Shown piece by piece: positions 1,722-63,680 of a DNA stretch of 64,000 nucleotides. The stretch's first letter is position 1; the number at the start of each line of letters is the position of its first letter. The notes under the pieces are model-generated. The model ran no database searches and was not told the DNA's origin. It was given only the letters and a program-made list of their open reading frames with translations. The DNA comes from an uncultured virus (IMG/VR IMGVR_UViG_3300037296_000406) (taxonomy: Duplodnaviria; Heunggongvirae; Uroviricota; Caudoviricetes). The stretch lies in the IMG/VR virus record IMGVR_UViG_3300037296_000406. The stretch is one strand, 5' to 3'. The translations under genes and the position numbers were made by a program.

Positions 1722-1810
1722 AAACAAATAAATGGTTTTTTTATACAAAAACGTGAAGAACAATAATATTTAAATTAGACCAACTCTTAAAAATGTCTAT
1801 TCTATTTCTT

Positions 1811-2560
1811 TTAGAGTTGGTCCTTATTGTATTGACTCTTCGTTCTTCTGCAATATTTAGTTGAACAATGAGTAGCAATTCCGTAATCAGAACATAACCA
1901 TTTGTCAATATCTTTAATCTCAGAAATAGTTTCTTCATGAGTAATCTCTGTAATTGAAACTTCTTCTTTAACATCAAGATACTTTGAAATTTCTTTCTCT
2001 CGAGAATACTCAGTTTTCTTAACTGAGCGTGGTATTGTTTTAACAATCTTATTCCTACATCGATCATTCGCTGTTTTTTCGAATGCCTCTATACACTGGA
2101 TAACAATTTCTCTTTTAAAGCATCGAGGCTCTTTTTTTGAATAAGTTTTTGGCTTTGTCTTCTTTTTAACTAATTTTTTCTTCTTTTTCTTAACTTTGCA
2201 GATAGTACATTTTTCATCTATGCTTTTTTGAACAGAATCTAATTTCTTATCAACCTTTGACTCTACATCAATTAATTTTTTTAATAAAAAATCTTCACTC
2301 TTTTTCAATCTATCAGATACAGCTTTAGTTTCGCTAGGAGAACCAACAACAGTGGTTATTTTTTTCTGATCAATTTTTGCAGACAATACCTTGTTGTCTT
2401 TTTGTACTGAACTCAAGTCTTTTTTAACATCGTCTAATTCTTTTAACATCTTAGCATTTTTTTGACTTTCTCGAAGTTTGTAATCTTTAGCTTTTTTATA
2501 AAGAAATACTCCTCCAAATAGAACTGCTATAATTAAAATAAATTGTAAAATCTTTTTCAT
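1811..2560 (-). CDS. Hypothetical membrane-anchored, Lys-rich coiled-coil protein with Cys-containing C-terminus
   Basis: N-terminal TM helix, coiled coil, poly-Lys run, several Cys; SD AAGGA. Confidence 0.7.
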   Translation of the reverse strand: MKKILQFILIIAVLFGGVFLYKKAKDYKLRESQKNAKMLKELDDVKKDLSSVQKDNKVLSAKIDQKKITTVVGSPSETKAVSDRLKKSEDFLLKKLIDVESKVDKKLDSVQKSIDEKCTICKVKKKKKKLVKKKTKPKTYSKKEPRCFKREIVIQCIEAFEKTANDRCRNKIVKTIPRSVKKTEYSREKEISKYLDVKEEVSITEITHEETISEIKDIDKWLCSDYGIATHCSTKYCRRTKSQYNKDQL

Positions 2561-2695
2561 ATTAAATCCTTGTGTTTACCTTTTATAGTATAACTTATTT
2601 TTATTTAAAATCCAAATAATTTGAATTTTAATTTATGATCTTATAAGAATAATCTATTTTTTATATAATTGGATTGTTTTGGGTATATCAGATTG

Positions 2696-2842
2696 ATGAC
2701 AAGAGAACAATTAATATATAGAGCAATTGCCTACTTCAATTATGAATTCCCTAAAGAACTAACTTCAGGGATCCTTTTTTTTAGAGGAGAAAAGATTTAT
2801 ATTAAAGAGTTTGTAGACGCTGTTAAATTATTTAAAGGATAG
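2696..2842 (+). CDS. Possible 48-aa small protein (below the ORF-track cutoff)
   Basis: Read by hand: MTREQLIYRAIAYFNYEFPKELTSGILFFRGEKIYIKEFVDAVKLFKG*. Its end overlaps an AAGGA...TCCTT stem followed by a T-run. No clear SD. Confidence 0.4.
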   Translation: MTREQLIYRAIAYFNYEFPKELTSGILFFRGEKIYIKEFVDAVKLFKG

Positions 2843-3056
2843 GAAGATAGTCCTTTTTTTTAAATAAAAAAGAATTAAATAAATTTTTACTAGATATAAT
2901 CGCCAACATTGAAAATTTTTAGTTTTAGAAGTGAAATTTCACATATGTATTCAAGTACTTTATTTTTTTTATATTAATTATTACATAAAAACAATACATT
3001 CCAATTTATTTATATACTTTCAGTTTAGGTACTTACAGTTTAATTTGTGCTTGTAT

Positions 3057-3085
3057 TTGATTAATTATTTTTAAAATGGTATATT
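3057..3085 (+). promoter_or_regulatory. Sigma70-like extended -10 promoter
   Basis: TTGATT (3057-3062), 17 nt, TATATT (3080-3085) with TG at 3077-3078; implies a ~170 nt leader before ATG 3260. Confidence 0.6.
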
Positions 3086-3109
3086 ATCTCCATATATATT
3101 ATATAAGTT

Positions 3110-3259: not shown

Positions 3260-4780
3260 ATGTCAACTAAAGAAATTAACAAAGAACTTATTATTACTGC
3301 TAAAAAACTTTTAAAAGAAAAAGGTTATGAAGTTAAGAATTCACATTTGTATGATGTTTTCGCACAATTATCAGGTCATAAAAATTGGCATATTGCCTCA
3401 AAAAAGAATCAAAATCTAACAGAAATATTAAATCAGGATCTTATAAATAAATCTAGGTTTAATTTAGATTTAAGTTTTCTCAAGGCAGGTGATGATATCC
3501 CTTTTACTTTTTTTGATAATAGATTACCTGCTTGGAATATGTCTATTGCAGGTCAAACGGGATCAGGGAAGTCTATATTGCTAAAGAAAATGATAAACAA
3601 TGAGGTAAATAAAGATCCAAATCTTGTTGTGAGAATTTACAATCAAAATGAAAAAGAATATTCAAACTTTGCAAAATCATTAGGTGGAAAATCTATTAAC
3701 TTTACACCCGATTGTAGATATTCAATTAATTTTTTTGAGATAAATCCAAACAAATCTTATCCAAATAAAGAGAAAAAAAATATAATAAAACAATTATTAA
3801 CCAAATATAGTGTAGATGAAAATAAAATAGATAATCTAATTTATAATTATTATATGTCTATTTATAATGAAAATTTAGAAAATAGAGATCAGGTTTTTAA
3901 AAAAATATTTAAATTTAATATAACTTCGGAAATTAAATCAATAATATCATTGAAAGAAGGAGATTGTGAACCTATGCCTTATGGATTATTACAATTAAAA
4001 ATGATTTTAGATTCTTTTGTTCCAGAAAATTATAAAATATTAAAGAATAAAAATGGATTGGACAAGATTATGGATGAGTTTTTAAAAGATGTTTATAATC
4101 AAGTTGGGAATACATATTCACGATACCCATCAATTTCAGATTTCTTTCTTTACTTAAGAGATGAAAAACTTGATCCTTATTTTCAAAAAGTTAAAGAATG
4201 CTTGAATAGAAACGATGGTTTTATTAAATTTGGCTATAAAACAGATAAAGTTTTTGATGAGAAAATTTTATCTATATCTTTTAAGGGCTTAGAGCAAAAT
4301 AATGAATTATATGGAATGTATAAACAAATTGTAGTTTTATTTCTAGACATGAAATTAAAAAGCTTGGAATGTGATGTTAGAAAGATTAATGCATTTGATG
4401 ATATATGGGAAGCTAGTCCTAAAAGTAATTGGAATCCTATTTTTCATAATATTTTAGGAACTTCTAGAAGAAATAATATAGGAAACATTTCATGTGTTCA
4501 GTCATTATCTGATTATTATATGATTGATGAAAATGAGGGGAGAGGTATTTTAAAAAACTTTCAAAAAATCGTTCAAGGAAAAACAAATTCTAAAATTACA
4601 GATATTTTTTTTAAAAAAGAATTTGGTTTTATTGATGAAGATTTAGAATTATTTGAAAAATATTGTGGAATTAGTCATAGCACAGAAGGTACTGGTTTTT
4701 TATTAATACATGAATATATATTATCTCCATTTCGGTTAAAAGTAACTCCAACTGAATATAATAAATTTACAGATTATTAA
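3260..4780 (+). CDS. VirB4/TraC-like P-loop ATPase domain fused to a small N-terminal helical (Glyoxalase_8-like) domain
   Basis: Walker A GQTGSGKS, INFFE, Walker B-like NAFDDIW, SRRNNIGNISCVQS. N-terminal AKKLL...SHLYDVFAQLSGHKNWHIA pattern. Confidence 0.7.
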   Translation: MSTKEINKELIITAKKLLKEKGYEVKNSHLYDVFAQLSGHKNWHIASKKNQNLTEILNQDLINKSRFNLDLSFLKAGDDIPFTFFDNRLPAWNMSIAGQTGSGKSILLKKMINNEVNKDPNLVVRIYNQNEKEYSNFAKSLGGKSINFTPDCRYSINFFEINPNKSYPNKEKKNIIKQLLTKYSVDENKIDNLIYNYYMSIYNENLENRDQVFKKIFKFNITSEIKSIISLKEGDCEPMPYGLLQLKMILDSFVPENYKILKNKNGLDKIMDEFLKDVYNQVGNTYSRYPSISDFFLYLRDEKLDPYFQKVKECLNRNDGFIKFGYKTDKVFDEKILSISFKGLEQNNELYGMYKQIVVLFLDMKLKSLECDVRKINAFDDIWEASPKSNWNPIFHNILGTSRRNNIGNISCVQSLSDYYMIDENEGRGILKNFQKIVQGKTNSKITDIFFKKEFGFIDEDLELFEKYCGISHSTEGTGFLLIHEYILSPFRLKVTPTEYNKFTDY

Positions 4781-7195: not shown

Positions 7196-7382
7196 CTACA
7201 AATCCTTATTTTATTTATTCTTAATAAATGGATAAACAATCTTTTTTGTTAATTTTTTAGAATTTCATTTTGTTTATCTTACATTATTTAAAGGTCAGTA
7301 GGTATAGATAATTGAACTATTTAGTAAATCATTGAAAAATATGTATTATACCATTTATATAGAATATAAGTGGAGATAAAGT

Positions 7383-8864: not shown

Positions 8865-10016
8865 CTATTTCTTAAAGTTGCTATTACTAATAACTCTTCC
8901 TTTAAATAGATTATTCGGATAAATATTATCTCGAAGCCAATCTTTCTCTGTTTCAGATTCGCTCTCAGATACATAAGTGTACCATGCTCTACTGTCTTTA
9001 TTCCACATATAACCACGAGCTTTTAAAAAATCTTTTGTTTCATAAGGAGTATTGTCTGCAAAAATAATATATTCTTTTACTGTTTTCAAGTTACTGTCAA
9101 TATTTAAAACTTTCTTATTATCACTTTTAGTTTTAGAAAGAACAGTTAAATCTTTAAATCTATTTTTAGAATTCAAAACAACTTTTTCAACAGTCGTTGA
9201 TTTATATTTTGCTAATTTAGTAGTTAATTCATTTTCTATTTTTAGACATTCGGATTCATCTCTAAAGTACTTGTACCAAAATTTAGTATTAGCTTCCCAC
9301 ATAAAGTTGTGAAGATTGAAAATAGATTTTGAATCAAAAGGTGTATTTTTCGCTATTAGAAGGTATTCTTTATTATCAATATTATTATTTAAGTATTGAA
9401 AATACGTCATATCTTCGAGAGGTGTATTTTGTTGTAATAATTCAGCTAAAGCTTTAGTATCATTAATCGCTCTGTGTCCTACAAAATAAAATCCATGATA
9501 TTCACATAAAGATTCTTGATTTTTTTTAGGGAAATTCCAGTCATCCCAATCTAAATCTTTGATAGAGCAAGTCCAAGGAATATCTTTTAATGAATCTATT
9601 TTTTCTTCAACAAAAGGTCTGTCAAATTTACTATTATGTGCAACACAAAAATCTACACTTTCCATATCCTTATCAACTTCATCCCAATCTATTTTCTGAC
9701 CTTCTAGATCTTTATCAGTAATTCCTGTAATACGGATTATTTGTTCATCAAGTTTCTCTTGAGGATCTTCTAAACCGTTAAACTCTTTTAACACTTTTAC
9801 AATTTTACCTGTTTTCATAGAAACTTGTAATTTTAAATATCCGAGTTCTATTATTTTATGTTCTTTAGAGTTTAAACCTGTAGTCTCAACATCAATAACT
9901 AAAATGGTCTTTAGATCTATTATATCGTTGGGACTTAATGATAAACCTACAAAGGGCTTTATTAATATACATCCGTCTTCTTGTAATCCAATTCTTCTAT
10001 ATCTTAGCTTTTCCAT
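8865..10016 (-). CDS. DEDDh 3'-5' exonuclease (DnaQ-like) with two C-terminal repeat domains
   Basis: ExoI IDVETTG, ExoII AHNSKFD, ExoIII HRAINDT; two NTP(F/Y)..K......W.....WY units. Confidence 0.9.
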   Translation of the reverse strand: MEKLRYRRIGLQEDGCILIKPFVGLSLSPNDIIDLKTILVIDVETTGLNSKEHKIIELGYLKLQVSMKTGKIVKVLKEFNGLEDPQEKLDEQIIRITGITDKDLEGQKIDWDEVDKDMESVDFCVAHNSKFDRPFVEEKIDSLKDIPWTCSIKDLDWDDWNFPKKNQESLCEYHGFYFVGHRAINDTKALAELLQQNTPLEDMTYFQYLNNNIDNKEYLLIAKNTPFDSKSIFNLHNFMWEANTKFWYKYFRDESECLKIENELTTKLAKYKSTTVEKVVLNSKNRFKDLTVLSKTKSDNKKVLNIDSNLKTVKEYIIFADNTPYETKDFLKARGYMWNKDSRAWYTYVSESESETEKDWLRDNIYPNNLFKGRVISNSNFKK

Positions 10017-10036
10017 ATAATACCTATATACATTTT

Positions 10037-10675
10037 TTAAATTTTTTCTAAAAATAGTGAAAGGTTATTTGAATATTCCTTTTCATCCTCTAAAAACAAC
10101 TCTTTAGTTAGGGTGTCAAGATCCTGTAAAAATTTGTCGTTATCTTTTAATACAGTTTCTATTCTTGAAAATATTTCTTGATACTTTGATTCTTCTTCTA
10201 GATTATTCATTAAGTGGCTTAAAAATTTTTGTTTACCTATAGTTAATTGAATAGAATTTTCTAAATCTCCTTGATTATCTACTAAATAATTCATTATATA
10301 TTTAGATTTTTTTGAATCTAACAGACTGCATCCTTTACTATCCCAATCGGTCAGGTAGTAACTTTTGTATCTTTTTTTAGAATAATTTTCAACAATAAAC
10401 CAGATATTTACTAAGTCTTGCAATTGTGCATGCTTATGTCTACTGAATAACTGAATTTGGGCTTGCTCGTCTAAATAAAAAAAGACATAATTAAGAATTT
10501 TATTTAAATTATTTTGTATTTCTTGAGTTTTAATAAAGTGGTCAAATATAAAGAATGTAATAACTGTCATCATACTATAAGTCATAAATAATAAATTGTC
10601 TGTTATTAAATACAGTGTTGCAAAATAGGCTGAACCTATGAAAGAAAATACCTTATTAATTAGTAACTTAGTCAT
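10037..10675 (-). CDS. Hypothetical membrane protein
   Basis: Two N-terminal TM helices; CCATTTA 6 nt before the ATG; no SD. Confidence 0.7.
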   Translation of the reverse strand: MTKLLINKVFSFIGSAYFATLYLITDNLLFMTYSMMTVITFFIFDHFIKTQEIQNNLNKILNYVFFYLDEQAQIQLFSRHKHAQLQDLVNIWFIVENYSKKRYKSYYLTDWDSKGCSLLDSKKSKYIMNYLVDNQGDLENSIQLTIGKQKFLSHLMNNLEEESKYQEIFSRIETVLKDNDKFLQDLDTLTKELFLEDEKEYSNNLSLFLEKI

Positions 10676-10757
10676 ATTTATTAAATGGAAAAAAGCACTC
10701 CATGATTTATATTTTTGTTGAATTATTCCATTTAAAATTCTAAATAAGGGGTAAAAG

Positions 10758-13004
10758 TTGGGATATATATTAGTAATCGTTGAATCGCCATCAAAAGCAA
10801 AAACAATAGAGAAGTATTTAGGAAAAGATTATAAAGTAATTGCATCAAAAGGTCATATTTATGATCTACCTCCAAAAGAGCTTGGTATCGATTTACACAA
10901 TAACTTCAAAGAAACTTTGGTAGCGATAAAAGGAAAAGAAGACACTATCAAGTATATAAAGAAGATGGCTAAAGGAGCAGATAAGATTTTACTTGCGCCC
11001 GATCCAGATAGAGAAGGGGAAGCTATTGGTTTTCACCTAAAAAAGGCTGTTGGTTCATCTAAAGAGATTGCTAGAGTTACTTTTAATGCGATTACAAAAG
11101 AAGTTGTACAACATTCTGTAAAAAACCCCACTGAACTCAATAAAAATATGTATGCTTCTCAAAAGACTAGAAGAATTCTAGACAGATTAGTAGGATATAA
11201 AGTTTCTCCCATTCTCTGGGATAAAATTGCAACTGGACTAAGTGCAGGTAGAGTTCAGTCTGTCGCATTAAGAATTATTGTAGAAAGAGAAGATGAAATC
11301 AAAGCATTTAATCCAGAGAAATGGTTTTCTTTAACTGCTACATTAAATAAAGGACAAATTTTCGAAAGTAAATACTTTGGTAAAAACGCTAAAGATAAGA
11401 ATGTATTAAGTGATAAAGAAGAAGTTGAAGCTATTGTTAAAGACATAAAGGATAAACAATTTAAGTTAGTCAGTTCAACAACTAAAGATAAAATCCAAAG
11501 TCCAACTCCTCCATTTACGACTTCTAAATTACAACAAGAAGCTTCAGCTAAATTAGGTTTCTCAGCTAAATTAACTATGCAAATTGCACAAAAGCTTTAT
11601 GAAGGAAAGAGTCTTAAAAATCATGGAACTCATGGTTTGATTACTTATATGAGAACAGATTCTGTTCGAACAGATGATAAAACATTAGATGGACTTAGAG
11701 AATATATTTTAGAAAATTATGGAAAAGAATTATTGTCAGAAGATAAAATAATACATAAAAAGAAAGGTTCTGGTGATGCGAAGACTCAAGACGCCCATGA
11801 ATCAATTAGACCTGCATCATTAAAATTCAAGCCTGATGATATTAAAGATGATTTATCTGAAGAAGAGTACAAATTATATAACCTTATTTGGAATAAGTTC
11901 GTAACATCTCAAATGGCATCGGCTATTATTGAAAACACTACTTATATTTTTGACTGTGCTGGTCACCACTTTAAGACTAGTGGTAATGTTTTAAAATTCT
12001 CTGGATTTAAGACTGTTTACGATGAAGAAAAAAAAGAAAAAAAATCTAAGAAAGGTGAAGATGATAATGAGGAATCTAATGCGGAACTTCCTTTAATAAT
12101 TCAAGATGAATTAGTTAATCAAGAAAAAGATGCAATATCAAAAGAGAATCTAACTTCTCCTCCAGCAAGATATAGTGAAGCAACTTTAGTAAAAGAGTTA
12201 GAAGATAAAGGCGTTGGTAGACCAAGTACATATGCGGCTATTATTGAAAACATTAAAAATAAAAAATATGTAGAACATTTTCAGAAAAGATTTAGACCAA
12301 CAGAACTTGGTGAAGTTTTATGTAAAATGTTAATTAAATATTTTCCATTAACTTTCGATGTTAAGTTTACAGCTAAAATTGAAAAAGAACTTGACTCTAT
12401 AGAAGAAGGTACTGAGAAGTGGACTGAAGTTTTAAATAATTTCTGGAATGGTCTTCATGAAAAAATAAATGAAGCATATCAAAAAATGCCATCGTTAAAA
12501 CCTTTAGGAATTCCAACTGGTCAAGAATGCTCAAAGTGTGAATTGGGTAAGTTAACTTTTATTTGGAAAAAAAATATTTCATTTCTAGATTGCGATAGGT
12601 GTGAATATTCTTCAAAAGCTGAACTTGAAAAAATTGGTCATTTTAAAGAAAAGTCTCTTGGTGCCAATCAAAAACCTTGTATTAAATGTGGTGGAATTAT
12701 GGAAATAAAAAGTGGTAAATATGGAGAATTTTGGGCATGTACAAACTATCCAGATTGTAAAAAAACTATGCCAGTTACTACGGGGGTAAAATGTCCTCAA
12801 TGTAATAAGGGCGAATTCGTCAAGAAAGTTTCAAAAAAAGGAAATACATTTTGGGGATGTTCTAATTTCCCTAATTGTAAAAGCGTACTTTGGGGAGAAC
12901 CCGTAGTTCAAGCTTGTGTCCACTGCAGACATCCTTTATTATATAAAGATAATAGAAGCGGAAAACTACAATGCGCTAGTGCTCAATGTAAGAAATATAA
13001 TTAA
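10758..13004 (+). CDS. topA: DNA topoisomerase I (type IA) with C-terminal zinc ribbons
   Basis: VIVESPSKAKTI, DPDREGEAI, SAGRVQS, catalytic LITYMRTDS, GVGRPSTYA, C4 Zn ribbons; TTG start with SD. Confidence 0.97.
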   Translation: MGYILVIVESPSKAKTIEKYLGKDYKVIASKGHIYDLPPKELGIDLHNNFKETLVAIKGKEDTIKYIKKMAKGADKILLAPDPDREGEAIGFHLKKAVGSSKEIARVTFNAITKEVVQHSVKNPTELNKNMYASQKTRRILDRLVGYKVSPILWDKIATGLSAGRVQSVALRIIVEREDEIKAFNPEKWFSLTATLNKGQIFESKYFGKNAKDKNVLSDKEEVEAIVKDIKDKQFKLVSSTTKDKIQSPTPPFTTSKLQQEASAKLGFSAKLTMQIAQKLYEGKSLKNHGTHGLITYMRTDSVRTDDKTLDGLREYILENYGKELLSEDKIIHKKKGSGDAKTQDAHESIRPASLKFKPDDIKDDLSEEEYKLYNLIWNKFVTSQMASAIIENTTYIFDCAGHHFKTSGNVLKFSGFKTVYDEEKKEKKSKKGEDDNEESNAELPLIIQDELVNQEKDAISKENLTSPPARYSEATLVKELEDKGVGRPSTYAAIIENIKNKKYVEHFQKRFRPTELGEVLCKMLIKYFPLTFDVKFTAKIEKELDSIEEGTEKWTEVLNNFWNGLHEKINEAYQKMPSLKPLGIPTGQECSKCELGKLTFIWKKNISFLDCDRCEYSSKAELEKIGHFKEKSLGANQKPCIKCGGIMEIKSGKYGEFWACTNYPDCKKTMPVTTGVKCPQCNKGEFVKKVSKKGNTFWGCSNFPNCKSVLWGEPVVQACVHCRHPLLYKDNRSGKLQCASAQCKKYN

Positions 13005-13075
13005 ATGATCTTATAATTATTATTTTTTTTAATTTTGTATTTTTTATTAGTATATAACACTAATAAGGAGTTACA

Positions 13076-13555
13076 ATGAACATCAGTACAATTGCACAAG
13101 GTTACGTATTAGGGAAATTATATTTATTCTTATTTAAATGCTTAAGTATTTTATTCATCCCTGTTATTATACTATATTTTTGTTTTATTTTCTCGTTTAC
13201 ATATAAGCCTTCGCCAAAAGAGCTTGAAAATTATCCCCCTCTATTATCTTCGGAGTTTGTTCAAGAAAGTACTTCACACCTCAGATATAATGTTAGAGTA
13301 GTATTAGCTAGCTTTGCTCCAATGAATGTAAATCACTTTAACGATCTTTCTCCTGAACAGATTAAGAATTTTCCAAAAATGAAAGATGCTTTTTTAACAA
13401 AGACTGAGCCAAATATTTTCAGAGAATTTGCTATATTTCTACCTAGGTATCAAAAGGGTTTAACACGTCTTTATGGAAAAATAACTAAAAAAATAGTTGC
13501 TCATTTTAAAGATAAGCCTATTGCTAAATTAAATTGGGATATTACTAAAAAGTAA
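13076..13555 (+). CDS. Hypothetical membrane-anchored protein
   Basis: N-terminal TM segment; SD AAGGAG. Confidence 0.7.
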   Translation: MNISTIAQGYVLGKLYLFLFKCLSILFIPVIILYFCFIFSFTYKPSPKELENYPPLLSSEFVQESTSHLRYNVRVVLASFAPMNVNHFNDLSPEQIKNFPKMKDAFLTKTEPNIFREFAIFLPRYQKGLTRLYGKITKKIVAHFKDKPIAKLNWDITKK

Positions 13556-13589
13556 TAGAGATCATTTTAATTTACCCATTTAGAGATTT

Positions 13590-15234: not shown

Positions 15235-15236
15235 TA

Positions 15237-15818: not shown

Positions 15819-15960
15819 AAATTGTATATACCTCAAAAATATTAAATTAATTAAAATTATATAATGATCTTTCATATAATATTTTCTTTATACAAAAAAT
15901 AAAAATATTCTTTTTTTTACCCATTTAGATTTTAATAATTAAATTGATAAGGAGATTTAA

Positions 15961-16347: not shown

Positions 16348-16354
16348 AATATTT

Positions 16355-16378
16355 AGCCCTCTTAGTTGAGGGTTTTTT
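16355..16378 (+). terminator. Intrinsic terminator
   Basis: AGCCCTC-TTAGTT-GAGGGTT followed by a T-run. Confidence 0.7.
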
Positions 16379-17282: not shown

Positions 17283-17335
17283 AAAAATCTCCTTTTAATA
17301 TTAATTAAATGGATTGTATTTCTTTATTTTATCAG

Positions 17336-21838: not shown

Positions 21839-21923
21839 GATCTACCCCTTTATATATAAATGGAGATTAATAAAAATTATACAATAAAAGAATAAATTTT
21901 GTTATATTCCTTTATTGTATTAA

Positions 21924-27676: not shown

Positions 27677-27749
27677 GCTATACACCTTTATAGTTAATTT
27701 CAACTAATTAAATGGAAAGTTTATTAATTATTAGCTACATTTTATTTTA

Positions 27750-28978: not shown

Positions 28979-29049
28979 TCTTAAATCTCCTTCATATATT
29001 AAATGGAAGTATTTACAACTATTCTTTCAATATTTAATGCATTTTTTTA

Positions 29050-36956: not shown

Positions 36957-37003
36957 ATACTATTACCTTATTATATAAATGTATAATAACGCTCCTTTTA
37001 CAA

Positions 37004-39730: not shown

Positions 39731-39769
39731 ATATATTATAAATGGATTTAATAACGTTTAATTTGATGA

Positions 39770-47915: not shown

Positions 47916-47924
47916 TAAATGGGG
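47916..47924 (-). promoter_or_regulatory. Representative copy of the recurrent CCATTTA promoter-like motif (here CCCCATTTA)
   Basis: One of 19 exact intergenic or 5'-proximal copies, all in sense orientation to the downstream gene (listed in findings). Confidence 0.75.
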
Positions 47925-50365: not shown

Positions 50366-50407
50366 GATTTCCTTATTATTTTCATTTATATAAATGGATT
50401 TTTTTAA

Positions 50408-51136: not shown

Positions 51137-51206
51137 TATGTCCTTAATATTATTATACGATAAATTAAATGGATTTTTTAGATAAAAGACCTATATCAAT
51201 TATAAA

Positions 51207-54354: not shown

Positions 54355-54438
54355 TATAGAACTCTCCTACTTAACTAAATGGAGATTATTTGAATAAAAA
54401 AAATACATAAAAGCTATTTTCTAGATTAAATAAATAAA

Positions 54439-54981
54439 TTATTTAATACGTAAAGGAATATCAAAAAACAAATAAGGCAAGTAAAATTCTCTAGAACCTT
54501 TATTTAGCGGTTTAACATCTATTTTAAGTCTGTCTAAGACCTCTTTATTTACGTATAGATTCATTTTATAATCACCAAAATTTATTTCTAACTCTACTAT
54601 ATCATGAAAAACTAATTGAGCTTTTTCTATAGATATTTCATCTGAAAATTCTACAATAAGTCTTCGTACCATTTGATTTTTTCTTCTATTAAAGAAAAAG
54701 TTTATTTCTTCTAATTTTTCTGCCGAAGCGATAATAGGGTTAATTGAAAATAATTCTCTTTCAATCATAACTCTTCGTTCTATTCTTGCCAACCAAAATA
54801 AATAATTAAAAACAACAGAATTTAAATCATGCGCCTTTTTTTCAAATTTCAATCGATTTTGCCTAAAATAAAAGTAAGTTCTATAAGCATAATTTATTGG
54901 GGACAATTTACCCTTTAAAAGGTCAGTATCTAAGCCTTCTCTAAATCCAATCAAGTCTGAAAGTACCTGTTTATCTATCAT
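54439..54981 (-). CDS. Hypothetical protein
   Basis: Start moved to MIDKQ at 54981: SD GGAG at 54987-54990, and CCCATTTA at 55015-55022 falls inside the longer ORF. Confidence 0.7.
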   Translation of the reverse strand: MIDKQVLSDLIGFREGLDTDLLKGKLSPINYAYRTYFYFRQNRLKFEKKAHDLNSVVFNYLFWLARIERRVMIERELFSINPIIASAEKLEEINFFFNRRKNQMVRRLIVEFSDEISIEKAQLVFHDIVELEINFGDYKMNLYVNKEVLDRLKIDVKPLNKGSREFYLPYLFFDIPLRIK

Positions 54982-55097
54982 TAAAACTCCATCTTTTATT
55001 TGTTTATCTATCGCTAAATGGGAAAATTTCATCATTTTTTTTTTATTTTTCTATTTATAGGAATAAGTAACATAATTAATTAAAAAAAAGAGGATTT

Positions 55098-57107
55098 ATG
55101 GTTAAAGAAATTAAGAGAAAAACTAAAGTTAGCGAAGCTAAAATTGAAGAGAAAGACCAAAGATGGCACACTAGAAACAGAATCACTTTAGTTTTTGGAT
55201 CTAATGATTTAGAAAATTTAAGTACTTATTTATATGATAAAGATCTTAATATAGAGTTTAAGGAGTTAGATTTTCATCAGGCAAAATCAAAAGCTATTGA
55301 AGAATTGCTCGATAATTGCATTGATGAATTTTATAGAGGTCATGTTACTGAGGTTCATGTAGAACTAAAAAAAGATAAAAAAACTGTCGTTGTTCAAGAC
55401 AATGGAATTGGATTTCCTGTAAACAAGATAGTTGACGTTTACTCTAAGTTTAGAACAGGTTCTAAATTTAAAGATGAGGGTTTAGATAAAAAAGGCTTTC
55501 TTAATCGTACTTTAGGTCAAAATGGTCTAGGCGCCGCGGCGACATGCTTAACTTCTGATTACTTTAAAGCAACAGTTAGGCATCACAACTCAAAAAAAGA
55601 ACAGACAGTTGAGTTTATAGATGGTGCTCTTAAGACAAAAAATTCTAAAGTTAAAAAATACAGAGGAGCTTCTGGAGTTAAAATTGAACTACAACTATCT
55701 ACTGAAGTATATAAAGACAATATTATAGATGAGCAATTATTAAGAAAAAGAATAATTGATTTAACTTATAACAACCCCGGATTAGTCTTTTATTTCAATG
55801 AAGAAAAATTTGTATCTAAAAAAGGATTAAGTGATTTAGCAATGATGGTAGATAAACAGACAGGTCAAACTCTGGGAGAAGATACTTTTATTCAAGAAGT
55901 TAAATTACAGAATAAAAAAGGTACAGCGAAAGGTAAGTATGATGTCTCAATATCAGTTGCTTACGAAACAAAATCTTATGAAAAAGAAAAGTTTATATCT
56001 TTCGTAAACTCTACACCTACATACGATGGTGGCTTTCATCATGACAGAGTAAAGCGAATATTTATAAATGAAGTTAAAGAAAAATTAAAAAGAGAAGCGA
56101 GTAAGAATAAAGTTGAATTAATGGATAGCGACATTGTTTCTGGTTTAGTTTTTATTATTGGGATAATTATGCCAAACCCTAGGTTTGAGTCTCAGACAAA
56201 AAGAAAACTTGTAAGAGATTGGCCTCTTGAAAAAAGTATTGAAGAATTAATTAAAGATAATATAGTTAAATTTTTCAAAAGAAACAAAGAATACTTAGAA
56301 GCTGTTATTGAAAGAGCTAAATCTAGAAATAAATTCGAAGTTTTAAAAGATGCATCAAAAATTGCAAAAAAAGTAAATAGTGCAAAAATCGCAAAACTCC
56401 TTGATGCTAATGAGAGAAAGGATAGAAGTAAATGTTCTTTATTTATCTGCGAAGGCGATTCTGCTATTGGTGGGTTAAGATCTTCTAGAGATAAACTCTA
56501 TCATGGAGGAATAGCGCTTAAAGGTAAGCCTATGAACGTTCTTCAGGCATCACTCAATGATATCCTTAATAATAAAGAATTCACTGATATAATGGGCTCT
56601 ATCGGTCTTACATTGGGTCAAAAAGCTGAGGGTAAGTCTTTAAGATTCGCTAATATTGTTTTTCTAGCAGATTCTGATGTTGATGGTGGACATATTAATA
56701 CACTTTTAACTAATTTCTTTTATAGATTTTGGCCTGAATTGTTTCACGAAGGTAGAATTCAGGTAACTAAAGCTCCTTTATTTGAGGTAGTTACTTCTAC
56801 TGGAAAAAGATTATTTGCGGAAAGCGATTCTGAGCTTGCTAATATTAAAAAAGACAAAAGGGTTACGATAAAAAACATTATGAGAAATAAAGGACTTGGT
56901 GAAATGAGCGATGAAGCTTGGACTTACATTTTGTCAAAAGATAAATACACTGTAATTTATTCTAATGATAAAGAAGAATCTACAGAGATGCTTGACATTT
57001 GTTTCGGAAAAGATGCACAGGCGAGAAAAGACTTATTACTTGCAAGTAATAAAGCAAATCCTAGTAAGTCAAAAAAAATAACTAAAAAGAAAGTAACTAA
57101 AAAATAA
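55098..57107 (+). CDS. Type IIA topoisomerase B subunit (GHKL ATPase plus TOPRIM)
   Basis: EELLDNCIDE, DNGIG, GQNGLG, FESQTK, EGDSA, LKGK, DSDVDG, RNKGLGEM. Confidence 0.95.
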   Translation: MVKEIKRKTKVSEAKIEEKDQRWHTRNRITLVFGSNDLENLSTYLYDKDLNIEFKELDFHQAKSKAIEELLDNCIDEFYRGHVTEVHVELKKDKKTVVVQDNGIGFPVNKIVDVYSKFRTGSKFKDEGLDKKGFLNRTLGQNGLGAAATCLTSDYFKATVRHHNSKKEQTVEFIDGALKTKNSKVKKYRGASGVKIELQLSTEVYKDNIIDEQLLRKRIIDLTYNNPGLVFYFNEEKFVSKKGLSDLAMMVDKQTGQTLGEDTFIQEVKLQNKKGTAKGKYDVSISVAYETKSYEKEKFISFVNSTPTYDGGFHHDRVKRIFINEVKEKLKREASKNKVELMDSDIVSGLVFIIGIIMPNPRFESQTKRKLVRDWPLEKSIEELIKDNIVKFFKRNKEYLEAVIERAKSRNKFEVLKDASKIAKKVNSAKIAKLLDANERKDRSKCSLFICEGDSAIGGLRSSRDKLYHGGIALKGKPMNVLQASLNDILNNKEFTDIMGSIGLTLGQKAEGKSLRFANIVFLADSDVDGGHINTLLTNFFYRFWPELFHEGRIQVTKAPLFEVVTSTGKRLFAESDSELANIKKDKRVTIKNIMRNKGLGEMSDEAWTYILSKDKYTVIYSNDKEESTEMLDICFGKDAQARKDLLLASNKANPSKSKKITKKKVTKK

Positions 57108-57128
57108 GTAACCAATACGGAGATAATT

Positions 57129-58529
57129 ATGAGTAAAGAAGACAACAAATCAATTAATAGTTTAGCTAAAATCAGTTTAAAGGATTTAGTTCAACAAGAA
57201 TACAGAATATATCAACTATATACGTTGATGGATAGAGCACTGCCTTATTTAAGAGATGGATTAAAGCCTTCTCAAAGAAGAATACTTTATACATTATTTA
57301 AAAATCAGAATAAAGGGTTACTTAAAGTTTCTTCTGCAACAGGATTAGTTCTATCTTTACATCCGCATGGACCAGCTTCTGTTGAATCTGCCATTGTTAA
57401 TTTAGCTCAAGACTATACATTTTCTAATAACTATCCTCTTGTTGAAAAGAAAGGATATTTTGGAGAAAGAATGGAGAACCAGCCTGCAGCTTCAAGATAC
57501 ATTGAATGTAAACTTAGTAGTATTTCTAAATTTTTATTATTTGATGATATGAATCAGGTTAATATGATTCCTAATTATGATGAACGAATGCTAGAACCTC
57601 AATCACTTTTACCTAAACTTCCATTAATGTTACTTAACGGTGCAGAAGGTATAGCGACAGGATACAGTTGTATGATACCATCATTCCACCATAAAGATAT
57701 TATTGATAGTATGATTGAGTTTGTTAAAACTGGTAAAGCTAAAAAAATTAAAGCTTGGGTTGATAACTATAAAGAAAATATTAAATATGATAAAGATAGA
57801 AACAGATACATATTTAACATGAAAATAGAAAGACTTAAGAAAAAAACTGGTGGTTTTGGATATTATATAACAGAGCTACCAAGAGGATATAATGCAACTA
57901 AAATAAATAATCACTTAAATAAATTAGTGGATGATGATTTTATAAAAGATTATATTGATAGTACTGTTAAGAACAATGTTATGATTGAATTAGTTTTTAA
58001 GAAAGGAAGCCGAATTAGTCTAGAAAATGTTATATCTCGAGTTAGTGCAACATCTACTCTAGTCCCTAACTACACATTAATCTCAGATGAGGGTGTTGAA
58101 GTTTTTGTTACTCCTGAATCTATTATAGAGATTTTCACAACTCAAAGATTAGGCGTTGTGAAAAGAAGATATGAACTGCTTTTAGAAGATGCTAAAAATA
58201 GAATTCAAAAGAATAATGAAATCATTAGATTTATTAAAGAAAAACATTATGATATAGCACAAAAGAAGCAAGATAAAGCTGACTATCTTAAGTATCTTAA
58301 AAGTAAAAAATTCGTTCATTATGATTATCTTGCAGAAATGAGTATATACAGAATGACTAAAGACGAAGTTTTAAAAAGAGCTTTAATGATTAAGGAAGAT
58401 TCTCCTAAAATAAAAGAATTTGAAGGTATTATTAAAAGCAAGAAAAAAATTCAAGATAAACTTTTTGAAGAACTTATAGAAGTTAAAGAAGTTTTAAGTA
58501 ATTTTTTAAGAGATAAAAATAGAAAATAA
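57129..58529 (+). CDS. Type IIA topoisomerase A subunit lacking the C-terminal pinwheel
   Basis: RALPYLRDGLKPSQRR, HPHG, catalytic AASRY, LLNGAEGIATG; only 466 aa. Confidence 0.95.
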   Translation: MSKEDNKSINSLAKISLKDLVQQEYRIYQLYTLMDRALPYLRDGLKPSQRRILYTLFKNQNKGLLKVSSATGLVLSLHPHGPASVESAIVNLAQDYTFSNNYPLVEKKGYFGERMENQPAASRYIECKLSSISKFLLFDDMNQVNMIPNYDERMLEPQSLLPKLPLMLLNGAEGIATGYSCMIPSFHHKDIIDSMIEFVKTGKAKKIKAWVDNYKENIKYDKDRNRYIFNMKIERLKKKTGGFGYYITELPRGYNATKINNHLNKLVDDDFIKDYIDSTVKNNVMIELVFKKGSRISLENVISRVSATSTLVPNYTLISDEGVEVFVTPESIIEIFTTQRLGVVKRRYELLLEDAKNRIQKNNEIIRFIKEKHYDIAQKKQDKADYLKYLKSKKFVHYDYLAEMSIYRMTKDEVLKRALMIKEDSPKIKEFEGIIKSKKKIQDKLFEELIEVKEVLSNFLRDKNRK

Positions 58530-60811: not shown

Positions 60812-60843
60812 CTATATATTAAATGGATTTATTTAAACAAGAA

Positions 60844-60875
60844 AAGGTGTCTTTTATATAAAAAAAAGACACCTT
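60844..60875. terminator. Intrinsic terminator
   Basis: Perfect 12-bp stem AAGGTGTCTTTT / AAAAGACACCTT. Confidence 0.75.
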
Positions 60876-60903: not shown

Positions 60904-61437
60904 TTATTTGAGTATTTCCGCCCCATCTTTTCCAATTCCAATTTCTTTACCTACAACTTCTTTTAAAACATTTTCTACTGTTTCTTTAATGAACATTTCT
61001 TTTTTTGAATTAAACATTTTGTCTTGTTCATCAGATAAACCTGTTATGATTTTTTCTTCTAGTAAAGGAATAAAAGGACCTTCAATTAGAGCTTTAGTTA
61101 TTTCTTGCTTAATTAGATTTTCTTGGTCAACAAGCTTGTCGGCAAGAACTTTATTAATCACATCTTTATACTGATCTAGTTCTTTTTTAGCCTCAATATA
61201 AACATCTTTTTTTATTTCTTCAATTAGAGCTTCTTTACCTTTATCCATAACCTCTTTCTTAAGTTCTTCTCTCATTTCAGCTTGAAGTTCTTTTTTTAGA
61301 TTGTTTTTTAGTACGTCTTGCTGAATTTTCAATTCAATCATTTCTTTTTTCATTTCTTCACTATGCTTTTTCAAATCACTCGATGTTGCACAAGATGTGA
61401 TTAGAGTTAAAGCAAGTAAACTTAGTAATGTTTTCAT
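60904..61437 (-). CDS. Coiled-coil lipoprotein
   Basis: Lipobox ITSC; SD AGGAG. Confidence 0.78.
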   Translation of the reverse strand: MKTLLSLLALTLITSCATSSDLKKHSEEMKKEMIELKIQQDVLKNNLKKELQAEMREELKKEVMDKGKEALIEEIKKDVYIEAKKELDQYKDVINKVLADKLVDQENLIKQEITKALIEGPFIPLLEEKIITGLSDEQDKMFNSKKEMFIKETVENVLKEVVGKEIGIGKDGAEILK

Positions 61438-61449
61438 TAATTTCTCCTA

Positions 61450-61959
61450 TTATTTATTATTAATTTTTATATTATAAGCTTTTTCACAGTAAGAGTCTGG
61501 AATTATAGTTCCCATCATATCTGCATTACTGTTATTTGCTGGGTTTGTATCTGCGCTACAGACTGGATTTCCGCAACTCATATCAAGAGTATCTGCTCTA
61601 AATTTACATTTCCTTGAAGAATTAAACTCAAAGAAAAAAGAGTATCTATAACCACTGTCATCAATATACCGAACATTCAACATCTCAGGTTTAAAAAATC
61701 TGTAACTTCTTTCATACTCTTTTAACATTTTACTTTCAATTTGAGATAGTGTTGCTAAATCCACTTTACCTACATCATCCATAGACAATTCTGAAATTTT
61801 CATAATTTGACCTTGAATTATTTGTTTCATCAATGGCATAATTTCAAATTTTATTTTATTTTTATCATACAGTTTTAAAAAATCATCTTTAGATATTTTT
61901 TCTGCTGATAAAACATTAAACGAACTTATGATAATAATAAGTGCAATAATTTTTTTCAT
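61450..61959 (-). CDS. Secreted hypothetical protein
   Basis: Signal peptide; four Cys near the C-terminus; start overlaps the upstream stop. Confidence 0.75.
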   Translation of the reverse strand: MKKIIALIIIISSFNVLSAEKISKDDFLKLYDKNKIKFEIMPLMKQIIQGQIMKISELSMDDVGKVDLATLSQIESKMLKEYERSYRFFKPEMLNVRYIDDSGYRYSFFFEFNSSRKCKFRADTLDMSCGNPVCSADTNPANNSNADMMGTIIPDSYCEKAYNIKINNK

Positions 61960-62408
61960 TATAAACCTACCCTGTCATTAAAATCTTTTAGTTGTAATCT
62001 CTCTTTTATTCTTGGACCAATACCCTGACCATTAGGAAGAAGTCTTGGAGGAATTACTTGCCTTACTTTTCTAAAGTATAAAGATTCTTTTTTTTCATTT
62101 TTTTGTTGCTCTAATAAATTGTACTTTTTAATTTGGTCTTTTAAAAAAAGTTCTTGATTTTCAAATTCTGCACCATACTTACTTTCATAATGACCTTTTA
62201 TTAAGAAACCTACTGTTCCTGCAACCGCACAATAAATAGCCGCATTCTTCATTTCTTCGCCTTCAGTTCCAGTACTATAACCTACAGCGGCACCTATAGC
62301 ACATCCTGCAGTTGGTTCAAAGTACTCCCATTCAAATATCCCTGCGTTAGCTTTTTGCATATTTGAAATTCCTAGTAGTAAAATTAAGCTTATAATTATT
62401 TTTTTCAT
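61959..62408 (-). CDS. Secreted glycine-zipper protein, paralog 2
   Basis: KANAG...FEPTAGCAIGAAVG...YCAVAGTVG. Confidence 0.78.
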   Translation of the reverse strand: MKKIIISLILLLGISNMQKANAGIFEWEYFEPTAGCAIGAAVGYSTGTEGEEMKNAAIYCAVAGTVGFLIKGHYESKYGAEFENQELFLKDQIKKYNLLEQQKNEKKESLYFRKVRQVIPPRLLPNGQGIGPRIKERLQLKDFNDRVGL

Positions 62409-62862
62409 ATATCCTCTTTTTAATTATGGTGCTTTAAGCAATATTTTCTTTGTTGGAGAAAATACACTTCCGTCTGGTTGTTCTTGAGCTTCTTCTATCT
62501 GTTCAGCTTCTATTGCATAATAATCGTCAATGATTCCTAAATTAGCTTTTTCAGCTTGACGGACAACCCTTACTCTTACTTCATCTTTTAATCTTTGTAT
62601 CCTATCTTCATGAACAATATCTACCTTCTTTCTCCAATATTGATTCATAGTGTAACCTAATATGGCTCCACCTAAACAATAGAGACCTGCTTGTGTTGCA
62701 TCTCCATCACCACTGATGCCTACGGCTCCACCGACTGCACAAAGAACTGTTGGTTCAAACCAATTAGAACTATAAAAACCTGCATTAGCTTTTGGGCTAA
62801 CAAATAATAGTGTGAATGTTAATGTTAAAAATAATTTTTTCATATATCCTCTTTTTAATTAT
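62400..62862. repeat. 28-bp exact direct repeat covering stop codon, SD and start of two paralogs
   Basis: TTTTTTCATATATCCTCTTTTTAATTAT at 62400-62427 and 62835-62862. Confidence 0.9.
62424..62843 (-). CDS. Secreted glycine-zipper protein, paralog 1
   Basis: KANAG...FEPTVLCAVGGAVG...YCLGGAILG. Confidence 0.78.
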   Translation of the reverse strand: MKKLFLTLTFTLLFVSPKANAGFYSSNWFEPTVLCAVGGAVGISGDGDATQAGLYCLGGAILGYTMNQYWRKKVDIVHEDRIQRLKDEVRVRVVRQAEKANLGIIDDYYAIEAEQIEEAQEQPDGSVFSPTKKILLKAP

Positions 62863-63629
62863 TGATCGTTTGGTAAAATACTAAGTTCACGACTCTTTTT
62901 GTCTAATAGTAATTTTTCACCCGGATTTAAAACTCTTTCTGATGACCATATCATATAGAAACCGGGTTTATTTTCCCATTCACCTTTTTCATCAACTCTA
63001 GGAAATGAATTCTCAACAATATACTTTATTTCTCTATATCCTAAAAAGTCAGGTGGTAAATTTTGTTTTTCTTGGTCTGCAGCGTCATAGATAGCATCAA
63101 ACTGACCTCTAACGATGACTGTAGTATTCATTGACATTGGAACTGGAAATGTGAGTATCTCATCAATTAAAAACACAATTGATTTCCTGTCTTGACTTAA
63201 AAGATTGTACATATCGCTTGATTGAGCATATTTTTTTTCGTTTAAACCTCTTTCAGGTCCTTTTGACATAAAAATAGCCTTCCACTTTGCATCTGATAGT
63301 CTTGCCTTATCATATCTTTTTGAACCATCTTTTTCTGTTACTAACTTATGAAAATCAAAAATTTGCTCATTTCTTGTTAAGTGCACATATTCTTCAATAA
63401 ACATTTGCATTTTAGCATCATGATTAATTGGATGAGCTGCCGATTGAATATATACTGCTGGGTAATGAGTTTCAATTTGTGGAATACATGAAACGGCATC
63501 TCTATCTTTAGCCCATTTTTCATTTATTACATTTTTAAAAATAGAGCTTCCGAAAGCAATGATAGTAAATATGATTAATAAATAAACTCTTCTTGAGAAT
63601 AGTTCAATTTCTTTAGTTTCTTTTTCCAC
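62859..63629 (-). CDS. Second VirB8-like bitopic protein
   Basis: TM then CIP; KMQMFIEEYV; C-terminal NKPGFYM; same layout as 25520..26230. GTG start with SD GGAGG; CCATTTA at 63647-63653. Confidence 0.55.
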   Translation of the reverse strand: MEKETKEIELFSRRVYLLIIFTIIAFGSSIFKNVINEKWAKDRDAVSCIPQIETHYPAVYIQSAAHPINHDAKMQMFIEEYVHLTRNEQIFDFHKLVTEKDGSKRYDKARLSDAKWKAIFMSKGPERGLNEKKYAQSSDMYNLLSQDRKSIVFLIDEILTFPVPMSMNTTVIVRGQFDAIYDAADQEKQNLPPDFLGYREIKYIVENSFPRVDEKGEWENKPGFYMIWSSERVLNPGEKLLLDKKSRELSILPNDQ

Positions 63630-63680
63630 TACTTCCTCCAGTCACATAAATGGTAAATATATAAAATATCCATTCGTTTT

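Follow-up and report, generated by a model that had tools for sequence, protein, structure and literature searches.

The heptamer CCATTTA lies shortly ahead of the majority of gene blocks in this giant, plasmid-like element and its relatives, and the likeliest reading is a promoter signal of an unusual kind. Comparison with relatives widens the word to C[CT]ATTTA. We consider it probable that this is a -10-type core box that works without a -35 element and defines the main promoter class of the element and its relatives.

Copies of CCATTTA in the window

All window counts refer to the 64 kb of the window, which is part of a contig 518,954 bases long. Exact CCATTTA occurs 33 times, compared with 15.36 ± 3.86 expected from 100 dinucleotide shuffles. 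None of the 100 shuffles reached 33 copies, and the highest had 24. A sequence-only reading of the window had listed 19 copies upstream of genes, at 6 to 35 nt from a start codon, and had set positional and strand enrichment over background as the test. All 19 are present (4 on the plus and 15 on the minus strand), and we found 14 more. The 19 are sense-oriented and end 6 to 33 nt before a start codon. This upstream-sense space makes up 4.9% of the strand-specific sequence, so the enrichment anticipated by that reading is borne out (binomial p, 5e-17). The remaining 14 copies are in coding sequence at chance density, 4 coding-sense and 10 coding-antisense. In a 7-mer count from -60 to +45 of 56 ORFs, CCATTTA ranked first upstream, with 19 observed and 1.42 expected. 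Control words had 0 to 4 upstream copies (ATTTACC, 2 of 19; CATTCTA, 1 of 8; TCATTTA, 1 of 26).

Five copies have the short spacing of what we call the leaderless type. These are 1729..1735 (-), 7 nt before ATG 1721 of a C5 cytosine methyltransferase gene without a ribosome-binding site; 10682..10688 (-), 6 nt before ATG 10675 of a 212-aa ORF that is followed by a DEDD exonuclease gene; 13576..13582 (+), 7 nt before ATG 13590 of parA-parB; 39739..39745 (-), 8 nt before ATG 39730 of a 908-aa secreted protein gene; and 60820..60826 (-), 8 nt before ATG 60811 of a 749-aa NHL lipoprotein gene. A bidirectional terminator hairpin (60844-60875) is immediately upstream of the last of these.

The other copies are farther from their start codons. 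The box at 7225..7231 (-; 29 nt before ATG 7195, 99-aa ORF) is one arm of a divergent pair with 7351..7357 (+; 25 nt before ATG 7383, 491-aa ORF). Similarly, 10682..10688 is paired with 10728..10734 (+; 23 nt before TTG 10758, topoisomerase I), which confirms the two divergent pairs with one copy per direction that had been described. Three boxes head longer blocks: 21857..21863 (-; 18 nt before GTG 21838) precedes an 81-aa ORF, a lipoprotein, a 78-aa ORF, bS21, and MutS; 27709..27715 (-; 32 nt before ATG 27676) precedes a T4SS-like block that extends to a TrbI/VirB10-like gene (21924-24455); and 63647..63653 (-; 17 nt before GTG 63629) precedes a five-gene block from 63629 to 60904. Boxes also lie at 15921..15927 (+; 33 nt before ATG 15961, 128-aa ORF), 17306..17312 (-; 23 nt before TTG 17282, 2OG-Fe(II) oxygenase), 29000..29006 (-; 21 nt before ATG 28978, 143-aa secreted protein), 47916..47922 (-; 24 nt before ATG 47891, a 1610-aa lipoprotein with thrombospondin repeats, followed by two more genes), 50391..50397 (-; 25 nt before ATG 50365, a 248-aa membrane protein and then RecJ), 51166..51172 (-; 29 nt before ATG 51136, 242-aa ORF), 54376..54382 (-; 21 nt before ATG 54354, lipoproteins of 571 aa and 474 aa), and 55015..55021 (-; 33 nt before ATG 54981, 180-aa ORF). 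A suggested near-match at 36976 proved to be ACATTTA, with one mismatch (36976..36982, -), 19 nt before ATG 36956 of a 2048-aa surface protein gene. The variant CTATTTA is at 55051..55057 (+), 40 nt before ATG 55098 of a two-gene, T4-like topoisomerase II.

Conservation in relatives and restriction to unit heads

The box is conserved in relatives spanning 28% to 49% GC. In three metagenome loci (L001, L002, and L003; TrbI 35 to 56% identical), the TrbI gene is directly followed by a terminator hairpin, CCATTTA, 6 nt, and an ATG, with only ~20 nt between terminator and box. These loci keep the position of the box at 21857..21863, and CCATTTA is the sole invariant block in a four-way alignment of the post-TrbI spacer. 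The only cultured relative is the Bdellovibrio plasmid pBdHM1 (49% GC; TrbI 32% identical). Its top upstream 7-mers are CTATTTA (32, compared with 1.8 expected) and CCATTTA (14, compared with 1.1). CYATTTA occurs 84 times in the plasmid, compared with 45 for a backwards control, and 52 of the 84 copies are upstream-sense. CTATTTA is the majority form at these sites (36/52). For five orthologous gene pairs, the box is directly upstream in both the window element and pBdHM1.

Other features of these elements were recorded as well. T4-like DNA-metabolism genes include topoisomerase II in the window (phrog_543/551) and dNMP kinase in pBdHM1. A bS21 gene was detected in the window, and pBdHM1, which carries the motif, has no bS21 match. 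The plasmid encodes a ProQ C-terminal-like protein and several helix-turn-helix proteins.

The box marks the heads of transcription units. Exact CCATTTA precedes 17 of 30 unit heads in the window, and 3 more have a one-mismatch form, which leaves 10 without the box. Only 2 of 22 operon-internal genes have CCATTTA. This bears on the idea that the word works at the RNA level, where it would sit in the 5' leader and affect translation, processing, or stability, either through a link to bS21 or with a reader such as the ProQ-like protein. Such a signal would also be compatible with the strand specificity and the close association with start codons, and the two proteins are encoded by the window and pBdHM1, respectively. 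However, the 20 operon-internal genes without the word are also translated, the word comes after terminators (60844-60875 and L001 to L003), and pBdHM1 has the motif without a bS21 match. We regard an RNA signal as very improbable.

Another idea is that the box is not a core promoter but a binding site for a global element-encoded regulator, either activator or repressor, beside ordinary AT-rich promoters. Operators repeated across an element are known from large plasmids, as with KorA/KorB of IncP plasmids, and the presence of several helix-turn-helix proteins in pBdHM1 would fit this idea. However, the word is asymmetric and strictly co-oriented with its gene. Furthermore, in GC-rich pBdHM1 the stretch from the upstream flank, itself GC-rich, to the ribosome-binding site 6 to 18 nt downstream offers neither space nor a signal for a second promoter, and in L001 to L003 the short terminator-to-box interval is all that is available. 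This makes a regulator site improbable.

Spacing, upstream flanks, and the search for a reader

Box-to-start spacing in the window is bimodal, with values of 6, 7, 7, 8, and 8, then 17 to 59, and none from 9 to 16. The 6- to 8-nt class has no Shine-Dalgarno sequence, and the class of at least 17 nt has a ribosome-binding site. The start of ParA is fixed by profile alignment, in which profile position 1 is residue 3, and that of the methyltransferase by a Dcm profile match that begins at its N terminus. In pBdHM1, the spacing is 15 to 27 nt at 36/52 sites. The sixth nucleotide after the pBdHM1 box is a pyrimidine in 40/52 and the seventh is a purine in 40/52. The two form a pyrimidine-purine step at 31/52 sites, compared with 7 to 13 at most neighboring offsets and one outlier of 20. 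This step is weak in the window (12/19 and 11/19).

The bimodal spacing and the pBdHM1 step point to a transcript start ~7 nt downstream and, therefore, suggest a -10-only core promoter. The box would cover about -13 to -7, and transcription would start at approximately the seventh nucleotide after its last A. If so, the messages of the methyltransferase, parA, and three other genes would begin at the AUG itself, and the others would have a short leader of ~10 to 26 nt with a Shine-Dalgarno sequence. The sequence-only reading had proposed a single, -10-dominated promoter class. Unit-head restriction, strand and position, bimodal spacing, the pyrimidine-purine step, and conservation all give that proposal indirect, sequence-based support, and we consider it likely that the box is a promoter.

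We also looked upstream for a -35 element. With spacers of 11 to 18 nt, the mean best match to TTGAAA at window boxes was 3.74, and that of shuffled flanks was 3.74 ± 0.17. TTGAAA does lie 13 nt ahead of the 7351 box and 18 nt ahead of the 29000 box, as had been claimed, but matches of at least 5/6 at 2/19 sites are no more frequent than in shuffled flanks (2.8 ± 1.5). None of the 52 pBdHM1 sites matched TTGAAA at 5/6 or better. Likewise, sigma-70-like promoters had been called for the histone and for the genes at 3260, 5786, and 6783, and a two-stage, early/late program had been proposed from them, but such matches occur at the shuffled rate in this AT-rich DNA (376 found and ~360 expected over four scans), so those calls are no evidence of promoters.

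No upstream column was informative in pBdHM1 except for G at -2/-1, one or two bases before the box (43/52 and 29/52). The base directly before the box is G at 29/52 pBdHM1 sites but at 0/19 window sites, where it is T in 12/19. These flanks are relevant to a reading in which the host housekeeping sigma, RpoD, would recognize the box as an atypical -10 element, in effect an extended -10 type of the lineage. Some -10 elements have a TGn extension (TGnTATAAT), and such extended -10 sigma-70 promoters work without a -35 element. The boxes resemble them in having no -35 and in the pBdHM1 G, which recalls TGn. Also, on the numbering used here, CTATTTA gives T-12, A-11, and T-10. However, the TG of this class is missing from the window, where G never directly precedes the box. 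The window form carries C at -12 instead of T. Every form has A in place of the expected T-7, and A at the -7 equivalent is unusual in sigma-70-family -10 elements. In total, the box differs from the TATAAT hexamer in three to four letters, one of them the final letter. Furthermore, the box is missing from 10 of the 30 unit heads of this window. Reading by RpoD is improbable.

An element-encoded sigma or RNA polymerase had been suggested as the reader, but none was detected in the window or in pBdHM1. Signatures of sigma region 2, the gp55 family, and T7-like or multisubunit polymerases were absent from the 64-kb window and complete pBdHM1, neither of which had a match to RNA polymerase Pfam or PHROG families. 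A six-frame search for the D[FY]DGD motif had its sole match inside a calcium-binding repeat protein. T4 gp55 as a query matches phrog_234, 34068, and 12791. No gp55-family PHROG was found in 49 window proteins or in 150 of ~203 pBdHM1 ORFs, and a six-frame pBdHM1 search with phrog_234 and phrog_12791 (E up to 10) gave no gp55-family match. Pfam scans of the window and pBdHM1 revealed no sliding-clamp families. Even so, T4 gp55 itself escapes detection by Pfam and 455 kb of the contig is outside the window, so there may still be a divergent element-encoded factor. A very divergent polymerase may also have escaped these searches. Because no polymerase gene is detectable in complete pBdHM1, we infer that the host multisubunit RNA polymerase is directed to the box by a non-housekeeping specificity factor. 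If the box is a promoter, the chance that this factor is an element-family protein too divergent to recognize, as T4 gp55 would be, is a little short of even. A conserved host alternative sigma is a serious but weaker candidate, and other readers take up the rest.

Comparison with known promoter systems

The resemblance to sigma-32 promoters noted in the sequence-only reading is partial. CCATTT is the last six of the eight letters of CCCCATWT, which an excerpt of PMC6687850 gives as the E. coli sigma-32 -10 box. However, a table in PMC545781 has the delta-proteobacterial sigma-32 consensus as CTTGAAA-N11/16-CCCCAT, and our boxes lack the required -35 CTTGAAA 11 to 16 nt upstream, so they are not canonical sigma-32 promoters. 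The two leading C's are also absent (the preceding base is mostly T in the window and G/T in pBdHM1), and the majority form in pBdHM1 is CTATTTA. Sigma-32 promoters serve chaperone and protease genes, whereas those served here are T4SS-like, lipoprotein, topA, parAB, methyltransferase, and mutS genes.

These points bear on a scenario in which the elements encode no factor but borrow a host regulon signal, so that the same promoter element is read by a host alternative sigma of the Bdellovibrionota, RpoH-like or Bd3314-like. The six shared letters and the lack of a detectable sigma or polymerase in complete pBdHM1 are consistent with this. Furthermore, an excerpt of PMC3464611 describes Bd3314 as an essential sigma-70-like factor of Bdellovibrio with some RpoH-annotated BLAST hits. 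However, an RpoH-like sigma does not fit the missing -35 or the transfer, surface, and DNA metabolism genes served. Also, an excerpt of PMC3627812 gives a single mapped promoter class for Bdellovibrio, TTAAG-N16-CCGATA, which differs from the box. Overall, a borrowed host signal is possible but doubtful.

If the boxes were promoters for a phage-encoded RNA polymerase, T7-like or phiKZ/AR9-like, the element should have the polymerase gene, in contrast to what was found in the window and pBdHM1. The preferred -10-only promoter most resembles T4-type late promoters. T4-type late transcription uses the sigma gp55, gp33, and the gp45 clamp, which is loaded at replication forks, and the T4 late promoter box is TATAAATA. 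T4 encodes a gp55-family sigma, unlike the window proteins and pBdHM1 ORFs that we searched. T4 is also a phage, whereas the elements here have the appearance of conjugative plasmids and not of phages, with no capsid, portal, or tail family match in the 49 window proteins or 150 of ~203 pBdHM1 ORFs. Moreover, C[CT]ATTTA does not match TATAAATA, because TTT replaces AAT. With TATAAATA as the T4 box, the late form of Aeromonas phage Aeh1 would be RCTAAATA, compared with GCTATTTA/GCCATTTA in pBdHM1. This Aeh1 form is a variant in which a/gC at -13/-12 replaces TA, according to an excerpt of PMC2988020. Even so, the boxes here share with T4-type late promoters a lone -10-region box and no -35 element, and the likeness extends to the topoisomerase II and dNMP kinase genes of the elements.

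CCATTTA at gene heads in the window

The sequence-only reading had proposed CCATTTA as a promoter-like word upstream of genes throughout the window, and every position at which it had placed the word holds an exact copy. The window has 33 copies, compared with 15.36 ± 3.86 in shuffled sequence, and none of 100 shuffles reached 33. We called 56 non-overlapping ORFs and classed every copy against them. Nineteen copies adjoin a start codon in the sense orientation; of the rest, 4 are coding-sense and 10 coding-antisense. The preference for position and strand that had been claimed for the word was borne out, with upstream-sense space making up 4.9% of the strand-specific sequence (p = 5e-17). The other 14 copies occur at about chance density. 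Each control word (the reversed word, a scramble of it, and every single change at positions 1 and 2) had 0 to 4 upstream copies. An unbiased 7-mer count of upstream regions ranked CCATTTA first (19 copies versus 1.42 expected).

After refining the gene starts, we defined the head of a transcription unit as a gene preceded by a gap of 40 nt or more or by a divergent neighbor, and all other genes were considered internal. An exact CCATTTA was found within 70 nt upstream of 17 of 30 heads. Three further heads have a one-mismatch form (ACATTTA at 36976, CTATTTA at 55051, and TCATTTA upstream of the histone gene). In the part of the window beyond 16.3 kb, the exact word is present at 12 of 15 heads and a variant at two more. 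Only two of 22 internal genes have the exact word, parA and a 908-aa gene with an upstream gap of 39 nt, and both are of a short-spacing type.

Five start codons lie close behind the word, at 6, 7, 7, 8, and 8 nt from its end; the others are 17 to 59 nt away, with none at 9 to 16 nt. There is no Shine-Dalgarno sequence in the five short-spacing cases, and one is present in the others. Two of the short-spacing starts are fixed by homology, with the ParA profile matching from residue 3 and the Dcm profile from the N terminus. RNA starting about 7 nt past the word would produce such a distribution. The AUG would then be either 5'-terminal or far enough downstream to lie behind a leader with a ribosome-binding site. 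The frequent 6- to 8-nt spacing predicts leaderless translation of maintenance genes (parA and the methyltransferase).

The element and its relatives

The window is 24 to 33% G+C, and tRNA and Rfam scans of it gave no match. It encodes a TrbI/VirB10-like protein (21924-24455), a VirB4-like ATPase (3260-4780), ParA/ParB, topoisomerase I, MutS, RecJ, a DEDD exonuclease, and a C5 methyltransferase. Judged by their predicted products, the genes resemble those of a large conjugative plasmid or an integrated element with its own DNA-metabolism genes. Many of the translations begin with lipoprotein-type signal peptides. A two-gene topoisomerase II (55098-58529, plus strand) is T4-like (phrog_543, 4.5e-134; phrog_551, 5.3e-107), and its two subunits fit phage T4-type families much better than models of cellular GyrB/GyrA or ParE/ParC.

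Several other genes are worth recording. A minus-strand block (17737-21838) combines ribosomal protein bS21 (20466-20678, minus strand; 28.6 bits versus a cutoff of 27) with MutS, two small lipoprotein-like ORFs, and an 81-aa ORF, which is unusual for a mobile element. The product of 27750-28448 (minus strand) ends in about 130 aa of lysine-rich repeat (KKVAKKATKK...), resembling DNA-binding tails of the H1/AlgP type; its gene has no CCATTTA box and is downstream of a terminator hairpin (28498-28531). Two minus-strand genes encode giant surface proteins, one of 2,048 aa (30810-36956) that has a fibrinogen-like GGGWT domain and also resembles phage tail-fiber families in one region, and one of 1,610 aa (43059-47891) with thrombospondin type 3/MtsC-like repeats.

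We found 10 relatives of the TrbI-like protein in the protein collection (31 to 67% identity) and 50 relatives of its neighbor, a 350-aa protein in the VirB9 position (24478-25530; 39 to 82% identity), the latter all from metagenome assemblies. The contigs that carry several of the 350-aa protein's relatives are 120 to 859 kb long, and the window TrbI-like protein is itself recorded on a contig of 518,954 bases, of which the analysis covered the 64 kb of the window. Neither protein had a relative in GTDB species-representative genomes or IMG/VR, and the VirB9-position protein had none in phage records. Its relatives possibly mark a family of giant elements, extrachromosomal or integrated, that has not been described before. 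When the plasmid collection was searched with both proteins, the only match was pBdHM1, and Megablast of 10000-30000 of the window against plasmids and phages gave no match.

Plasmid pBdHM1 of Bdellovibrio sp. HM001 (AP029175.1; 160,999 bp, circular, 49% G+C) is the only named relative. BLASTP matched 18 of the 56 window ORFs to it, among them four T4SS-like genes in a syntenic run. A 64-aa histone-fold-like protein of the window (586-780, plus strand) scored under the curated cutoffs for Pfam Histone and DUF1931. Its top solved-structure matches are 8cmp and 8fvx (E = 3e-7), which we take to be the Bdellovibrio histone Bd0055/HBb. These structure matches and the pBdHM1 link are hints of a Bdellovibrionota-like host. 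The window DNA occurs in sequencing runs labeled salt lake metagenome.

The box in pBdHM1 and in metagenome loci

Three short metagenome loci encode the end of a TrbI protein. Each has the same arrangement past the stop codon: a terminator hairpin, then CCATTTA about 20 nt further on, then the ATG of the next gene after a gap of exactly 6 nt. When the spacers after TrbI in these loci and the window were aligned four ways, CCATTTA was the sole invariant block.

An unbiased count of the 60 nt upstream of 203 pBdHM1 ORFs gave CTATTTA (32 versus 1.8) and CCATTTA (14 versus 1.1) as the top 7-mers. The combined form C[CT]ATTTA occurs 84 times, compared with 45 for the backwards control, and 52 of the 84 are upstream and in the sense orientation (p = 2e-38). 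Most of these (36 of 52) are 15 to 27 nt before the start codon. Five orthologous gene pairs have the box directly upstream in both the window and pBdHM1, and the rest of their spacers are unalignable.

Because pBdHM1 is GC-balanced, the flanks of its boxes are informative. A G lies two bases before the box at 43 of 52 sites, with a pyrimidine-rich stretch further upstream, and the -35 region of the 52 sites has no conservation at all. Downstream, the sixth base is a pyrimidine at 40 of 52 sites and the seventh a purine at 40 of 52. The two together form a YR step at 31 of 52 sites, compared with 20 at one neighboring offset and 7 to 13 at most others. Bacterial transcription start sites usually show such a pattern, with a pyrimidine at -1 and a purine at +1. 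In the leaderless cases with 6-nt spacing, the purine of the step coincides with the A of the ATG. The step is weak in the AT-rich window (12 of 19 and 11 of 19).

The 52 pBdHM1 sites fall into two sub-forms, GGCCATTTA (16 sites, with G preceding the box in 16 of 16) and G[T/G]CTATTTAT (36 sites), and the preceding base differs between them (Fisher p = 8e-6). The CC form precedes RNR, ArdA, and small ORFs, and the CT form mostly T4SS-like and envelope genes; the window has the CC form almost exclusively. A second word, TTCATCC, is also enriched upstream of pBdHM1 genes (21 versus 1.9). Together with GGATGAA, 3 to 10 nt away, it makes up a short inverted repeat near ribosome-binding sites, for example upstream of 10537-12897, 17493-18965, and 24967-25776 (pBdHM1 sequence L004). 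The window has seven TTCATCC copies, which is not an enrichment, and none is at a gene head. Upstream of 23066, 26374, 38465, and 39434 of L004 are AT-rich spacers with repeated GATACCGT/ACGGTATC words, preceding SbcC-like, DHH, and other genes. These spacers look like a third, operator-controlled promoter set.

Taken with the comparative evidence, the sequence data support CCATTTA well as a probable promoter. The word might otherwise be the operator of a global regulator or a leader signal acting at the RNA level. Both of these readings are disfavored by the strict orientation of the box, its absence from 20 of 22 internal genes, its position directly after terminators, and the lack of room for another promoter in pBdHM1. 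Therefore, we consider an operator improbable and an RNA-level signal more improbable still.

The reader of the box and known promoter systems

The proposal that the element itself encodes a sigma factor or RNA polymerase found no counterpart in the window proteins or complete pBdHM1. No sigma or RNA polymerase family was detected in 47 to 49 window proteins plus small ORFs (Pfam, NCBIfam, and PHROGs) or in pBdHM1 (202 ORFs by Pfam and 150 by PHROGs, the latter being those of about 203 without a clear Pfam name). The only protein with the catalytic D[FY]DGD signature is a calcium-binding repeat protein. A six-frame Sigma70_r2 search of pBdHM1 was empty at E values up to 0.1; the same search matches 10 of 14 control genomes. 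As a positive control, the T4 late sigma factor gp55 was recovered by phrog_234 (2.9e-69), and by Pfam Sigma70_r2 only at E = 0.087. Six-frame phrog_234 and phrog_12791 searches of pBdHM1 were empty at E values up to 10. A candidate factor from the window, a 180-aa ORF (54439-54981), had no usable ESM Atlas match. The sole partial signal in pBdHM1 was a region 4-like helix-turn-helix in a 92-aa LuxR-type protein. A split sigma made up of this protein and its 193-aa neighbor was rejected, with no window counterpart (phmmer E > 0.4) and no region 2 signal.

Since these profile and signature searches yielded no sigma or polymerase candidate, the transcribing enzyme is most likely the host polymerase. 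For its specificity factor there are two options, an alternative sigma of the host or a protein of the element that escapes all profiles. We tentatively suggest the latter, at less than even probability: a giant conjugative plasmid-like family, with members on metagenome contigs of 120 to 860 kb and one of 161 kb in a cultured Bdellovibrio, may use its own factor, unrelated to known sigmas, to redirect host RNA polymerase to -10-only C[CT]ATTTA promoters, with many of the messages leaderless. Such a factor would represent a new type of promoter-specificity determinant, and the system as a whole would be a plasmid analog of late transcription in phage T4. That a host alternative sigma reads the box is also conceivable, likewise at less than even probability, and the box would then define a so far unknown specificity of a Bdellovibrionota alternative sigma.

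A literature term search, with subscription journals and supplements outside its scope, found no printed description of a CCATTTA/CTATTTA box, and "HM001" with "Bdellovibrio" returned nothing in the literature searched. Promoters with only a -10 element are of a known kind. The added interest here is conservation of the box across an undescribed family of giant elements, one not represented in IMG/VR or in the phage collections and species-representative genomes that were searched, together with a cultured member for testing. Because the box is shared with a plasmid of a cultured, genetically tractable predator, its reader should be findable by ordinary experiments. The box also provides a simple rule for locating promoters and operon boundaries in giant elements with almost no annotated genes, and it could be a portable promoter for Bdellovibrio genetics.

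The box had been likened to the sigma-32 -10 element, which a passage of PMC6687850 gives as CCCCATWT in E. coli; a table in PMC545781 lists CTTGAAA-N11/16-CCCCAT as the delta-proteobacterial consensus. The likeness extends to six of the eight letters (CCATTT). It does not extend to a -35 box, with the best TTGAAA matches no better than in shuffled flanks in both elements. Furthermore, sigma-32 targets are heat-shock genes, whereas the genes served by the box are not. Recognition by the housekeeping sigma through an odd -10 has little probability in our view. Sigma-70-like patterns, the kind from which the sequence-only reading had suggested a two-stage program like phage early/late transcription, match the window at shuffle level. 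The box is also unrelated to the mapped Bdellovibrio attack-phase promoter, which appears as TTAAG-N16-CCGATA in a passage of PMC3627812. The closest mechanism is that of T4 late promoters, which have a single -10 box and no -35, and for which a passage of PMC2988020 describes a phage Aeh1 variant with a/gC at -13/-12. From each promoter family compared, the box departs in at least one tested defining feature. By analogy, the box would be said to work like a T4-type -10-only promoter rather than to be one.
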